Below, piece by piece: positions 21,001 to 24,000 of a stretch of DNA of 36,138 bases. Within the stretch, counting starts at the first letter, position 1. Every line of letters begins with the position of its first letter. Source of the stretch: Candidatus Aenigmatarchaeota archaeon (GTDB lineage Archaea; Aenigmatarchaeota; Aenigmatarchaeia; Aenigmatarchaeales; JACQIB01); assembly GCA_038999215.1 (NCBI GenBank), contig JAWABM010000006.1, positions 1-36,138 on the forward strand, written 5' to 3'. Made by a program: the position numbers.

Positions 21001-24000
21001 GAGCGAGCCTAGCTGGACTCCCATGGAAGAAAATTGCCGCCGCCATTATTTATTTGGAATAGGTCTCCTTGTATATGGGCTCTGATTCGAGCTTCTTCTC
21101 GTCCCTCTTGTAAAAATCATCCGAGAGCTTCTTGCCAGTGGCCTTCTCCCAGTCCTCTATGCTTGAAGAGAACCGCCTCTGAACCTTGTCCCTGTACCAC
21201 TGCGGTATGACGTTGAAGGCGCAGAAAGGCACTATCGTGCCGTCAGGCTGCGAGTAATGTATGCAGCAGCGCTTGACCCTCTCGATGTCGTAGTTGTAAA
21301 GGTCCTGGAAATGCATCATCCCGAGGAAAAGCGACTTGTGCTGCAGCTCCCTGAGCGAGCCGTAATCCCTGTTCTTGAATATGTTGAAAAGTATGTTTGC
21401 CAGGTTGAGGTCCTTGGGCTGCCTCTTGCTGTCTATGAAGCTCTTGAGCTTGAACAGCATCTCGGCTCCGACAAGCAGCTTGCTCCTTCCACCCTTTATG
21501 TCGTCCGCCTTCTCGTTGAGGTACTCCATCATGCCGTCGACATCGACGAACCTGGTTATCGGCACAGGCTTGCCATTGTCCATGAAGACATATGTTGCCA
21601 TGCCGCACACCGGATGGGCCGTGAGCTCGTACCTTCCTCTTCCTGAGAGCGCCTCGATGAAGTGGGTTATAGCCGTTACAGTCGGAACAGGATACCAGTC
21701 ATCCCTCGCTATCTCTCCGTTCGTCTGCTCCTCTATCCTTTTTATGGCGTCGGGTATGGTTATCCTGAACTTCTCCCTGTCGGCCTTGGTTATCCTGCCG
21801 ACAAGAGAAACCGGTTGGAAGTTGACTCCCCTGACTATGTCCAAATTCCTTATGCCGAACCTGATTATGTCGCCGAGCTCATGGTCATTGACGCCATTTA
21901 TCACAGTCGGGACCAGCACCACGCCCATGCCGGTCTCCCTGACGTTCCTGAAAAGCCTCGGTATCTCCCAATGGTTCTTCGGGTTGGTCTTCGCAGTGAC
22001 GCCGTCGAAGCTCAGGTAGAGGGTGTTCACCCCTGCCGAACGCAGCATCTTGACCAGCTCCGGATTCTGCGACATCCTTATGCCGTTCGTGTTGAGCTGC
22101 ACGTGGTCGAAGCCCTCCTCCTTCGCTACCCTCACTATGTCCACTATGTCCTCCCTTATCGTGGGCTCGCCTCCGGTCAGCTGTATTGCGTTGGTCGCAA
22201 CCGGCCTCTCCTGCCTGAGGTTCTTGAACATGAGCCTTATCTGCGGAAGCGTGGGCTCGTAGAGGTAGCCCATGGCCTTCGCATAGAAGAAGCAGTAGAA
22301 GCAGGCAAGGTCGCAACGGTTGGTTACGACCGTGTTCGCGAGCGCCGTGTGCGACTTGTGCGCGTCGCACAGCCCGCAGTCCATCGGGCATGCCCTGAAC
22401 TCCGTGGCAGGGTTATCTATGCCCTTTCCGTCGTGGGCCCACTTCATGGCTCTCTTGTACATCTCATAATCGCCGTAGTAGAGATCGGAGAACTCGCCGT
22501 GCTCGAGGCACTTCTTCCTTATCCAGACCTTGCCGTCCCTCTCGAAGAGCTCCGCATCCAGTATCTTCAGGCATTCGGGGCAGAGGCTCCCGGTTTTCTT
22601 GATGTGATTTTCCTTCATTTCAAACCACGGCTTATAATATAGCATTAAACTACTTAAAGGTTCAGACAGCGTACTTGGCCTGTATCGCATGGGATATCTG
22701 CGTTTCTATCGCCGCACCGACCAGTATGAGCGCTATCGCTATGCCCAAGAGCAGCATCGCAACTCCGAGCAGCCTGTTGCTGTTCCTTGAGAAAGGCGCA
22801 TACCTCATCATCGCCGAAGCTATGAAGGCGCCAGCGACCGAGGCGTAAAAATATGCAACGACCTCAGGGACAAGGTGCAGTATGTAGTAAGCCGCGCCCA
22901 TCGAGAACCCCTGCATTATGGCGACGGGCAGGACCGTGCCAGCGGCTCTTATCTTGGCTATCAGCAGACCCATGGCAACGCCGACAACCGAGGCGTTCCA
23001 TGAGAGTATGAAGAGCGCGCCGGCTCCGAAAATGAAGCTCATTATCGTGCACAGCACGACGAGCTTGACGTTGTTCACGGCTATCGTCATGAAGACGTCA
23101 GTGGACGTAGCGGACGCAGTCGAAACGCCTATCTGCCTGAGGTTGTAGAGCTGCTCGGAGAAAAGCACCTGGGTGAGGTCCTGCGAAAGGACGCTGTACC
23201 AGAAGGCGATGCCAACAGCCATGCCTATGAAGAGGAAAAGGTAGAGCTCGGCTATATCGGCATTGGTCTCAAAAAGCTTCCTTATGGAATGCAGCCTCGC
23301 CTCCTGGACGGATTTCTTCTTCAGGATGTTGGTGAACACGTATATCGCCGGCAGGGTCATGAATGTGACCACGACCATGCTGGGCGCGTGCGCGAAGAGC
23401 GCGACCGAAATGAACACCGATATCGAGGAGATGAAAAGGCCGACCAGGAAAAGGTGCCACGGCCTCTTTATCTCCAGATTCATCAGGAAGTCCATTATCA
23501 TGCCATCACTATAAAGATTACGGAAATCCTCTTATATAAAATTATAAAACGGCCAGTACCGCACCGCACGGTGCGGCGCCGCCTTTCCAAAAGCTCTCAG
23601 ATGCTGCCCAGCGCCTCAACGAGCTGGCTGAGTATGTCCTTGTCGGCCGGGAAGCCCAGGGCGTTCTTGAACCTCTTCTTGCCCTCCTGCGTGACAAACC
23701 CCTTCGAAATGGAGATTATTTCCGTCTCCCCTTCCTCGGTCTTTGCCTTCTTCCTTGCTATCTCAAGGAACTTGTTCGTTCCGAACTTTATCTCTTTTGC
23801 CTCAACAGTCTCGAATTCTACCATTTTTCCAACCTCCTTTTTCTTTTGTCATATGAGTGTTGCCGACTCAACTTCCACGTCGCCCACTCCTTCAATGCCC
23901 CTCAACAGGTCCTCTACAACCTCGGTCCCGCCCTTGGTGTCCGGCCTCACGACCATTATCTTCAGCGCCTTCAGCCCGAAGCCGAGGAGCTCTATCTTGG

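Follow-up and report, generated by a model that had tools for sequence, protein, structure and literature searches.

Does the 36,138-nt window, by which we mean the whole stretch of Candidatus Aenigmatarchaeota DNA analysed here, carry a tetraether synthase that truly belongs to this genome, and could the cell supply such an enzyme with a lipid? The gene in question, tes (21050–22618, minus strand), encodes a radical SAM enzyme of 522 aa that we assign as tetraether synthase Tes, or GDGT-MAS, from NF045702, its match to 7TOL, ligand conservation and trees. The preliminary description called this gene (g00310) intact, and we agree. The reading frame contains no internal stop, the protein reaches 735.2 bits with the NCBIfam profile NF045702, whose cut-off is 450, and the M. 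jannaschii GDGT-MAS (7TOL) matches with an E value of 8.9e-144. An upstream ATG would give a protein of 546 aa, but this would overlap the neighbouring gene.

We read the ligands off an alignment to 7TOL, using the motifs given in PMC9433317. The rubredoxin motif C-x2-C-x20-C-x2-H is present as C13/C16/C37/H40, the N-terminal cluster of three Cys and one His as C77/C81/C84/H87, and the radical SAM CxxxCxxC as C102/C106/C109. Residues C338, C451 and C466 are identical in 244 of 244 aligned rows, and this conservation suggests that they are the C-terminal cluster ligands. The domain order, the rubredoxin and the three cluster motifs are those of MJ0619, and the labile Met439 and Tyr459 of 7TOL are kept as M435 and Y455, as are the equivalents of the 5'-dAH-binding Phe106, Gln268 and Ser271. 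In contrast, Arg210 is replaced by Asn212 within an NPKNHW motif that is common to Bathyarchaeia, Nitrososphaeria, one Archaeoglobi copy and Micrarchaeota, and Tes here sits in a 571 kb DPANN assembly. Judged from its sequence, Tes is intact and retains every cofactor ligand.

Tes in DPANN archaea and a partial pathway have already been published; whether the gene is native was the open point. Our search of openly available main texts turned up no description of a native Aenigmarchaeota Tes, and PMC8941075 suggests that DPANN Tes in general is host contamination. Misbinning does happen in this gene family, as a 5.3 Mb bin titled 'bacterium' holds a Tes nested among Aenigmarchaeota. For the present copy, however, trees, synteny and the 23S rRNA comparison refute contamination, which we regard as extremely improbable. 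Twenty-six of the 28 order Tes copies, this one included, form one clade (FastTree support 99), and the order clade was recovered in IQ-TREE with a 97-row subset (SH-aLRT 98). The conserved neighbour fen1 (19996–21024, minus strand; TIGR03674, 412 against 352) is no more than 1.2 kb away from tes in 16 of 28 genomes of the order that we examined, compared with 7 of 92 other Aenigmarchaeota and none of 85 non-Aenigmarchaeota loci. The 36 kb contig has the average GC content of the genome and carries an RNase P RNA, a tRNA and, as a taxonomic anchor, a 23S rRNA gene (8235–11686, minus strand; Rfam RF02540, exceeding the model by about 460 nt). This 23S rRNA matches an order member at 75% over 2456 nt, and one Halobacteriota and one Thermoproteota genome at 67% in the longest matches. 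The named top matches of Tes are mostly Aenigmatarchaeota, and contamination of the genome is 0.06%. Because the contig's 23S rRNA is most like that of relatives, fen1 keeps its place and the gene falls within the order clade, tes of this genome is, by these comparisons, native and inherited within the order.

The claim of nativity does not carry over from this order to the phylum as one family. A single clade of 56 Aenigmarchaeota Tes rows was rejected (AU p = 0.0005), ruling out a single phylum-wide origin, and in two members of the order the same fen1/EF1-beta locus holds Tes copies from other clades. As the trees stand, Tes is polyphyletic across the phylum. Homologues were found in 231 of 371 phylum genomes at E ≤ 1e-20 and in 216 at E ≤ 1e-100, this genome counted; the earlier phylum count and the 74% identity of the same-genus Tes were thus reproduced. 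The worry that the weaker matches are Tes paralogs is mostly answered, since 33 of the 35 genomes concerned score above the cut-off for Tes and the remaining two have partial matches. Tes and GGGP synthase (GGGPS) occur together in 177 of the 371 genomes, Tes only in 39, GGGPS only in 45 and neither in 110; HMG-CoA reductase was found in 188, and all three together in 129.

Several genes for making a Tes substrate lie in the window. A short-chain trans-prenyl diphosphate synthase (2495–3574, plus strand, its start set by our own gene calling; PF00348, 213 bits) has IdsA as its best NCBIfam match and is a GGPP synthase candidate whose chain length is only predicted. It is followed by a NUDIX hydrolase (3585–3989, plus strand), and a type 1 isopentenyl-diphosphate isomerase, IDI, lies at 6821–7348 (minus strand; NF002995, 173 against 127; TIGR02150, 151 against 106). 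Beyond tes are the CDP-archaeol synthase gene carS (24429–24968, plus strand; NF003114, 171.6 against 148), directly 3' of it a DedA/VTT membrane protein that is possibly a lipid flippase (24965–25414, plus strand; PF09335), and a CDP-alcohol phosphatidyltransferase for head-group transfer (25716–26234, minus strand), whose best match, archaetidylserine synthase, is below cut-off. The preliminary description credited the genome with IDI, GGPP synthase, GGGP and DGGGP synthases, CDP-archaeol synthase and geranylgeranyl reductase with its ferredoxin. This stands for IDI, CarS, GGGPS and the geranylgeranyl reductase (GGR) family, which score above cut-off, and less firmly for the candidates for GGPP synthase (209 against 468) and DGGGPS (218 against 296), for which the right family is the best match but below its equivalog cut-off. 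A check for the complete pathway found DGGGPS (as a best match), CarS and GGR with ferredoxin present, and the mevalonate pathway and G1PDH absent. The ferredoxin, which has two CxxCxxCxxxCP motifs, adjoins GGR on its upstream side; an 88-aa ORF downstream of GGR has no Cys and was ruled out as the ferredoxin.

Six-frame searches of this genome, which is 88% complete, found no member of the GHMP, AA_kinase, HMG-CoA reductase or G1PDH families, confirming the reported absence of the GHMP and AA_kinase families. A tblastn search of the genome for remnants of IPK, MVD or PMK gave no match at E ≤ 0.1. In a same-genus genome, IPK (230 against a cut-off of 120), diphosphomevalonate decarboxylase (318 against 171) and a PMK-like gene follow the NUDIX hydrolase; they are absent from the equivalent site here. 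The earlier idea that these symbionts live on scavenged precursors applies to some lineages but not to the phylum generally: HMG-CoA reductase is widespread, and the same-genus genome encodes IPK together with enzymes of the lower mevalonate pathway.

The GGGPS of this genome is a group II enzyme encoded outside the window (contig C1, 45749–46714; TIGR01769, 203 against 161.6). It departs from the canonical G1P-binding triad: Val182-Thr-Asp184 replaces the family Tyr-x-Glu, while the first Tyr is kept. According to PMC9385802, two Tyr and one Glu are 'strictly conserved' in GGGPS and are the proposed main residues of stereospecificity and catalysis. The Tyr-less GGGPS, that of this genome included, group together in a single clade of 55 rows (support 95), and their fold is intact (Foldseek TM 0.91–0.94). 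The protein shares with MtGGGPS (4MM1) and TvGGGPS (6NKE) the fold, the first Tyr, the metal-binding Asp and the GSG phosphate loop, and differs in the Val-Thr-Asp, in QIGT for VTGT in beta-8 and in a basic C-terminal tail. A database cluster look-up of 10 Tyr-less representatives returned no useful taxa.

The absence of the G1PDH family here and its presence in 23 of 42 order genomes were reproduced, but the absence, previously left as a possible gap, tracks a distinct type of GGGPS together with an SDR gene across the phylum. We typed 67 hand-chosen genomes by motif, whose kin are not independent (22 canonical, 45 Tyr-less). Those with a canonical GGGPS have a G1PDH-family gene in 21 of 22 cases, adjacent in 16, and an adjacent SDR in none of the 22, whereas 41 of the 45 Tyr-less genomes lack a G1PDH-family gene and 35 have an SDR beside GGGPS. 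Adjacency holds in 23 of 33 Tyr-less genomes after removal of those found via the SDR search, and in 19 of 29 after also removing four SDR training genomes. It recurs in at least seven families and across three subtypes of the motif. Within the order the GGGPS-SDR and GGGPS-G1PDH cassettes occupy the same locus; compared with canonical GGGPS and EgsA, this genome lacks EgsA and the SDR stands in its place. Only one of seven genomes of this genome's family has G1PDH. Among 80 metagenome loci an SDR was nearby in 17 and G1PDH in none; where at least 900 nt were present on both sides, an SDR was nearby in 10 of 44.

The SDR keeps the TGxxGxxG cofactor motif and the YxxxK catalytic motif. Its best families, all below cut-off, are HpnA, SdmB and OleD, which, going by their names, act on lipids. 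In this genome, parts of the gene lie at the ends of two contigs, C5 and C4, beside DGGGPS. A stop codon terminates the N-terminal part 23 nt from a contig end, so that the SDR may not be intact here.

Based on these observations, we propose that the cell imports small precursors and uses them to make and cross-link ether lipids of its own, a reading to which we give a probability of roughly 0.55. C5 units would be imported, as IPP/DMAPP in this genome and as mevalonate-stage intermediates in close relatives, and IDI and the prenyl synthase would convert them to GGPP. GGGPS would then prenylate an acceptor that has no C2 stereocentre, most likely DHAP, and the extended SDR would reduce the 2-keto group, so that the chirality of the backbone would be decided by the SDR instead of G1PDH. 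Such a G1PDH-free route, in which either chirality is possible, is a tentative suggestion that we place somewhat short of even odds. DGGGPS, CarS, the head-group transferase and GGR with its ferredoxin would, by homology, yield saturated archaeol, the substrate of Tes. Tes in turn would join phytanyl termini with two SAM and its auxiliary clusters to give GDGT, GTGT or macrocyclic archaeol. We consider this activity very probable from the sequence; counted against it is the Tes homologue MA_1114, which is almost inactive for GDGT according to PMC8941075. SAM, Fe-S assembly and C3 phosphate probably come from a host or from unassembled DNA. SAM synthetase and SufBD were not found in this assembly. 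Counted against the DHAP step is its supply: triosephosphate isomerase was found in two of five Tyr-less genomes and in none of the ORFs scanned here.

Prenylation before reduction has a parallel. In the eukaryotic acyl/alkyl-DHAP pathway the chain is put on DHAP first and an SDR-type enzyme then reduces the ketone; the likeness is an analogy only, as the first enzyme and the chain chemistry differ. According to PMC7852524, Marine Group II, Lokiarchaeota and Cloacimonetes also have GGGPS and DGGGPS without G1PDH, and for their backbone the reports turn either to a supply of G3P or to some unknown route to G1P. In the present case, by contrast, GpsA-type G3PDH was found in none of the five Tyr-less genomes examined, and a candidate enzyme is linked to an active-site change. 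In the openly available main texts searched we found no description of the Tyr-less GGGPS-SDR pair.

Several observations count against the proposed order of steps. G1PDH-family genes do occur in four of the 45 Tyr-less genomes (strong in G003 and G190, divergent in G027 and G039), and G039 and G028 have no SDR match at E ≤ 1e-35. Strong SDR matches occur in G324 and G013, and also in five genomes that have G1PDH and a group I-type GGGPS, the latter assigned by motif in G012 and G032 and by score in G006, G008 and G011. In the metagenome set, only the minority of loci given above has an SDR nearby. The Glu-to-Asp change is also found in Tyr-bearing GGGPS. It is conceivable that Tyr-less GGGPS is relaxed but ordinary and uses host G1P, G1PDH having simply been lost and the SDR being incidental: the protein still scores above GGGPS cut-offs, the SDR is neither confined to nor universal in Tyr-less genomes, and symbionts take in many metabolites. 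We think this unlikely, given the breadth of the adjacency and its absence with canonical GGGPS, and given that G1PDH is missing as well from Tyr-less genomes with HMG-CoA reductase, which include most members of families f36 and f39. The SDR could instead be a soluble, non-homologous glycerol-phosphate dehydrogenase that converts DHAP to G3P (or G1P), with Tyr-less GGGPS accepting G3P to give a bacterial-type backbone. The SDR does take the genomic position of G1PDH, and losing a residue proposed to govern stereospecificity is in keeping with a change of enantiomer; PMC9385802 adds that DGGGPS accepts G3P-based GGGP and that CarS in crude membranes has no strong backbone selectivity. We regard this as slightly less likely still, because the best families of the SDR are named for lipid substrates and because an SDR that made G1P would not account for the altered GGGPS site.

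Tes might also mainly remodel host archaeol, the upstream genes serving dolichol or decaying. The missing mevalonate enzymes, G1PDH, SAM synthetase and SufBD would fit, as would the 39 of 216 Tes-positive genomes with no PF01884 match, including Tes on contigs of 610 kb and 802 kb. All downstream enzymes are nevertheless present here, and the GGGPS shares 82% identity with that of the same-genus genome. Some GGGPS-negatives, moreover, are misses or possible replacements: a divergent GGGPS-like gene is present in G075, and in five genomes G1PDH is followed by a gene with the cis-prenyltransferase fold. These cases weaken the equation of Tes without GGGPS with remodelling of host lipids, a role that we consider improbable.

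For many Aenigmarchaeota, we see a close to even chance that Tyr-less GGGPS prenylates DHAP (or G3P) and the SDR sets the stereocentre, possibly giving G3P-backbone tetraethers across the 'lipid divide', and that there may be a third variant, in which a protein with the cis-prenyltransferase fold serves next to G1PDH as a non-homologous GGGP synthase. Whether DPANN Tes is contamination from the host was left open by Zeng et al. (2022); for this order, it is not. As 129 of the 371 genomes combine HMG-CoA reductase, GGGPS and Tes, GDGT synthesis could be within the reach of much of the phylum. This would contradict the published view that the phylum is unable to make its membranes de novo, and it bears on which organisms produce environmental GDGTs. 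The GGGPS-SDR pairing, which lies outside the window, is the newer result. It offers two expressible proteins for the long-standing question of backbone synthesis in archaea without G1PDH, and bears on whether all archaeal ether lipids share G1P chirality.

A changed acceptor is known for this fold: MoeO5 (PDB 3VK5) is a GGGPS-fold prenyltransferase that uses a different C3 acceptor, 3-phosphoglycerate, as PMC9385802 relates. It is not the nearest relative of the present GGGPS (16% identity, TM 0.79). A RuBisCO III on the contig prompted the idea of 3-phosphoglycerate as acceptor here, which is disfavoured by this low similarity and by the activation that the carboxylate would need.

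The gene at 21050-22618 on the reverse strand of the window encodes a protein of 522 aa that scores 735 bits against the tetraether synthase (Tes) family NF045702 (cut-off 450) and matches the solved GDGT-MAS structure 7TOL (E 8.9e-144). Motifs for the rubredoxin, the N-terminal cluster and radical SAM, as laid out in the relevant parts of PMC9433317, are all there, and the equivalents of Met439 and Tyr459 are kept. Positions C102, C106, C109, F110, Q268, C338, M435, C451 and C466 did not vary among 118 Aenigmarchaeota and 126 other Tes rows. The preliminary description of the gene (g00310) as an intact Tes is borne out by the score, the 7TOL match and the motifs, and its concern that weaker hits might be Tes paralogs was mostly dispelled, since 33 of 35 weaker-hit genomes passed the family cut-off. 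The gene is a genuine, inherited Tes, a further member of a known family. Thirteen Aenigmarchaeota Tes (L123-L126, L128-L129, L131, L134-L139) appear to lack the cysteines belonging to the auxiliary N-terminal cluster; 13 aligned rows have a Tyr at C84 and the tree holds a clade of 13, the rows being matched by count only. The whole genome has at least eight radical SAM genes.

The source assembly comprises 571 kb in 24 contigs (completeness 87.93%, contamination 0.06%). GC content is even along the window contig, at about 54%, and the contig bears 23S rRNA, RNase P RNA and one tRNA. Among five genomes searched, the 23S gene was 75% identical over 2456 nt to a member of the order Aenigmatarchaeales, and 67% identical in the longest matches to one Halobacteriota and one Thermoproteota genome. 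This gene (8235-11686) runs to 3452 nt where the model has 2987 positions; two stretches of the query, near 2481-2605 and 2783-3150, had no match in any of the five genomes, which suggests insertions or introns. Of 371 phylum genomes, 231 had a Tes match, with 216 of them reaching E<=1e-100. The Tes tree had 244 rows (285 loci minus 4 short, 24 duplicate and 13 redundant Nitrososphaeria rows), and in it the same-genus Tes was sister to the window Tes. Both fall in a clade of 29 rows (support 99) that takes in 26 of the 28 order genomes in the tree, along with two further Aenigmarchaeota and an unplaced bin; IQ-TREE recovered the same order-level clade from 97 rows with support 98. The adjacency to fen1 claimed for the order was also found: fen1 lies within 1.2 kb of tes in 16/28 order genomes, 7/92 other Aenigmarchaeota and 0/85 outside loci. 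The clade, this synteny and the 23S gene on the contig exclude contamination as the origin of the window copy, as the preliminary description had held against a host source. Passages of PMC8941075 suggest a host origin for Tes in DPANN bins; our result settles that doubt for one order. Some Aenigmatarchaeota proteins are already named Tes by NCBI, the preprint 10.1101/2023.10.20.563219 places GDGT-bridging homologs in DPANN, including Aenigmarchaeota, and PMC13473441 traces ether-lipid genes by inference to the ancestor of DPANN.

The phrase ‘native to Aenigmarchaeota’ stands for the window copy and its order clade, but not for one phylum-wide family, because monophyly of Aenigmarchaeota Tes was rejected (p=0.0005). 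The phylum label required 19 changes on the tree, 14 of them forced by well-supported branches. At this locus two order members, G032 and G035, have Tes from other clades, a sign of replacement in place. Tes was present in 37 of 61 sampled Micrarchaeota, a tally that takes in one unpublished genome (G404) used in no other count. As the tree is unrooted and is without Thermococci, Methanobacteriota, Thermoplasmatota, named Hadarchaeota, Asgard and most DPANN phyla, it does not choose between ancestral and early acquired Tes. Two genomes without a GGGPS (GGGP synthase) hit, G065 and G133 (L585, L586), have Tes of other clades among core genes on main contigs of 610 kb and 802 kb, the G133 copy nesting with Thermoproteota. 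A group of non-Aenigmarchaeota genomes of 1.0-1.3 Mb with HMG-CoA reductase (HMGR; L055, L059, L067, L073, L074, L075) have Tes nested among Aenigmarchaeota copies.

In this genome 677 genes were called with our own codon model, and 584 off-window ORFs were scanned against Pfam (E<=1e-8; 52 short or low-scoring ORFs excluded, window ORFs scanned separately). Much as described before, the genome has an ether-lipid set. The window encodes a prenyl diphosphate synthase, type 1 IDI, CarS and a CDP-alcohol transferase; elsewhere lie GGGPS (C1:45749-46714), a DGGGPS candidate (C4:594-1376), GGR (C1:25718-26908), which a ferredoxin gene abuts, and a gene for a cis-prenyltransferase. Tes very probably cross-links saturated archaeol produced by the cell's own enzymes. 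Six-frame family searches of the genome found no HMGR, GHMP kinases, amino-acid kinases, G1PDH (the usual archaeal backbone enzyme), SAM synthetase or SufBD, in agreement with the earlier statement that the two kinase families and G1PDH were not found here; the scanned ORFs held no ATP synthase, GAPDH, PGK or TIM. In the same-genus genome IPK, diphosphomevalonate decarboxylase and a PMK-like kinase sit between NUDIX and Yip1 genes that directly abut in the window; here, then, the kinases have either been lost or relocated. Across the order, AA_kinase hits occur in 34/42 and GHMP hits in 25/42 genomes, most at family level only, and HMGR in 12/42. A cluster at window 12774-17991 (AMP phosphorylase, type III RuBisCO, ribose-1,5-bisphosphate isomerase, phosphoglycerate mutase) is a known nucleoside-salvage route. 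On contig C14 (L169:3066-6570) a tyrosine integrase adjoins a 357 aa reverse transcriptase, its best match a sub-cut-off group II intron RT, possibly a mobile or diversity-generating element; on C5 (L154:12271-14070) an amino-acid permease is fused with a methyltransferase domain.

Two GGGPS types, 22-28% identical to each other, occupy the same locus within the order: group I adjoins G1PDH, and group II is like this genome's. Aligned with MtGGGPS, the enzyme of this genome keeps the first Tyr, and Val182-Thr-Asp184 replaces Tyr-Leu-Glu. The sections consulted of PMC9385802 describe these Tyr/Tyr/Glu residues as strictly conserved and propose them as main determinants of stereospecificity and catalysis (Y134/Y178/E180 there, Y130/Y172/E174 in the 4MM1 chain; mapped by motif). 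The Tyr was kept in 122 of the best 150 cluster representatives, and one clade with support 95 holds the 44 typed Tyr-less enzymes (of 45) that entered the tree, together with 11 cluster representatives. A Tyr-less subtype in families f31, f38 and f39 (L423-L425, L434-L435, L469, L471-L477) is without the first Tyr too, and its phosphate loops are changed (CAGSS, HIAS), with an extended short-chain reductase (SDR) still adjoining; G248 has a second, further diverged GGGPS paralog next to the first.

We typed the motif in 67 genomes, chosen by us by score class or found via the SDR search; as they are related and not independent, no p-value is given. In the 22 canonical genomes a G1PDH-family gene, divergent members counted, was present in 21 and adjoined GGGPS in 16, and none had an adjoining SDR. 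Among the 45 Tyr-less genomes, 41 had no G1PDH-family gene and 35 had an extended SDR within 1 kb (23/33 after dropping 12 SDR-found genomes, 19/29 without four training genomes as well). The Tyr-less alignment retrieved 80 metagenome loci, every one of them Tyr-less, with SDR nearby in 17 and G1PDH in 0. Here the SDR gene lies in two parts at the ends of C5 and C4, beside DGGGPS, an order shared with G029; the first part runs into a stop 23 nt short of the contig end, at which point it diverges from the C4 start, likely a contig-tip error. In the literature searched, whose scope stopped short of subscription journals and supplements, nothing was found on the Tyr-less GGGPS-SDR pair.

DHAP offers a free primary hydroxyl at the position with which G1P attacks GGPP, and it has no C2 stereocentre, so that loss of the GGGPS Tyr fits DHAP as acceptor. 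We propose that the Tyr-less GGGPS would prenylate DHAP and that the SDR would then reduce the product. We favour this route over each rival, at a probability of about 0.4, because DHAP fits the Tyr loss, the SDR resembles HpnA, SdmB and OleD, and GpsA was found in none of the five Tyr-less genomes searched; that TIM was found in just 2 of 5 counts against it. If G1P were imported, the SDR would be an incidental neighbour. The pairing in 35 genomes speaks otherwise. Several cases count against the favoured route: G003 and G190 combine the Tyr-less enzyme and SDR with a normal G1PDH, a divergent G1PDH-like gene is present in G027 and G039, and a strong SDR match persists in five order genomes with group I-type GGGPS and G1PDH, and in G013 and G324. 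The SDR search matched 72 of 169 genomes at E<=1e-35, G039 and G028 giving no match; the weaker matches are probably other SDRs. We consider import unlikely. That the SDR is itself a glycerol-phosphate dehydrogenase would suit its place beside GGGPS in genomes lacking G1PDH, and is less probable still given its relatives; other options for the backbone step are the least probable. We regard the pathway around tes as a new form, which offers, as a testable candidate, a backbone step free of G1PDH.

The phylum divides three ways by Tes, GGGPS and HMGR content. The order (42 genomes) has 34, 36 and 12, respectively; a nine-family block of reduced gene content (120 genomes) has 19, 6 and 11; and the remaining 209 genomes have 163, 180 and 165. 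All three occur together in 129/371 genomes. PMC8407114, in the portions used, held that the phylum is unable to make membranes de novo, mevalonate genes being wanting, although it did see mevalonate kinase, G1PDH and phospholipid enzymes; with HMGR as single marker for the upper mevalonate pathway, this view applies to just a part of the phylum. No G1PDH-family hit was found in 109 of 222 genomes with a PF01884 (GGGPS) hit.

Five genomes without a PF01884 hit (G025, G024, G023, G264, G197) encode a 287-349 aa protein directly after G1PDH (L577:1942-2991, L582:2078-3112, L392, L578:1121-1987, L579:3420-4283), 39-52% identical between three families. It has a predicted cis-prenyltransferase fold (pLDDT 90.7) with matches to UppS and Rv3378c; PF01255 was hit on 8 of 56 homologs, and one homolog is named Ca. 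Methanoperedens. The protein is a candidate non-homologous GGGP synthase. In family f12 genomes with HMGR and Tes and no PF01884 hit (G065, G066, G045; L574-L576), a nucleotidyltransferase, not GGGPS, flanks G1PDH.
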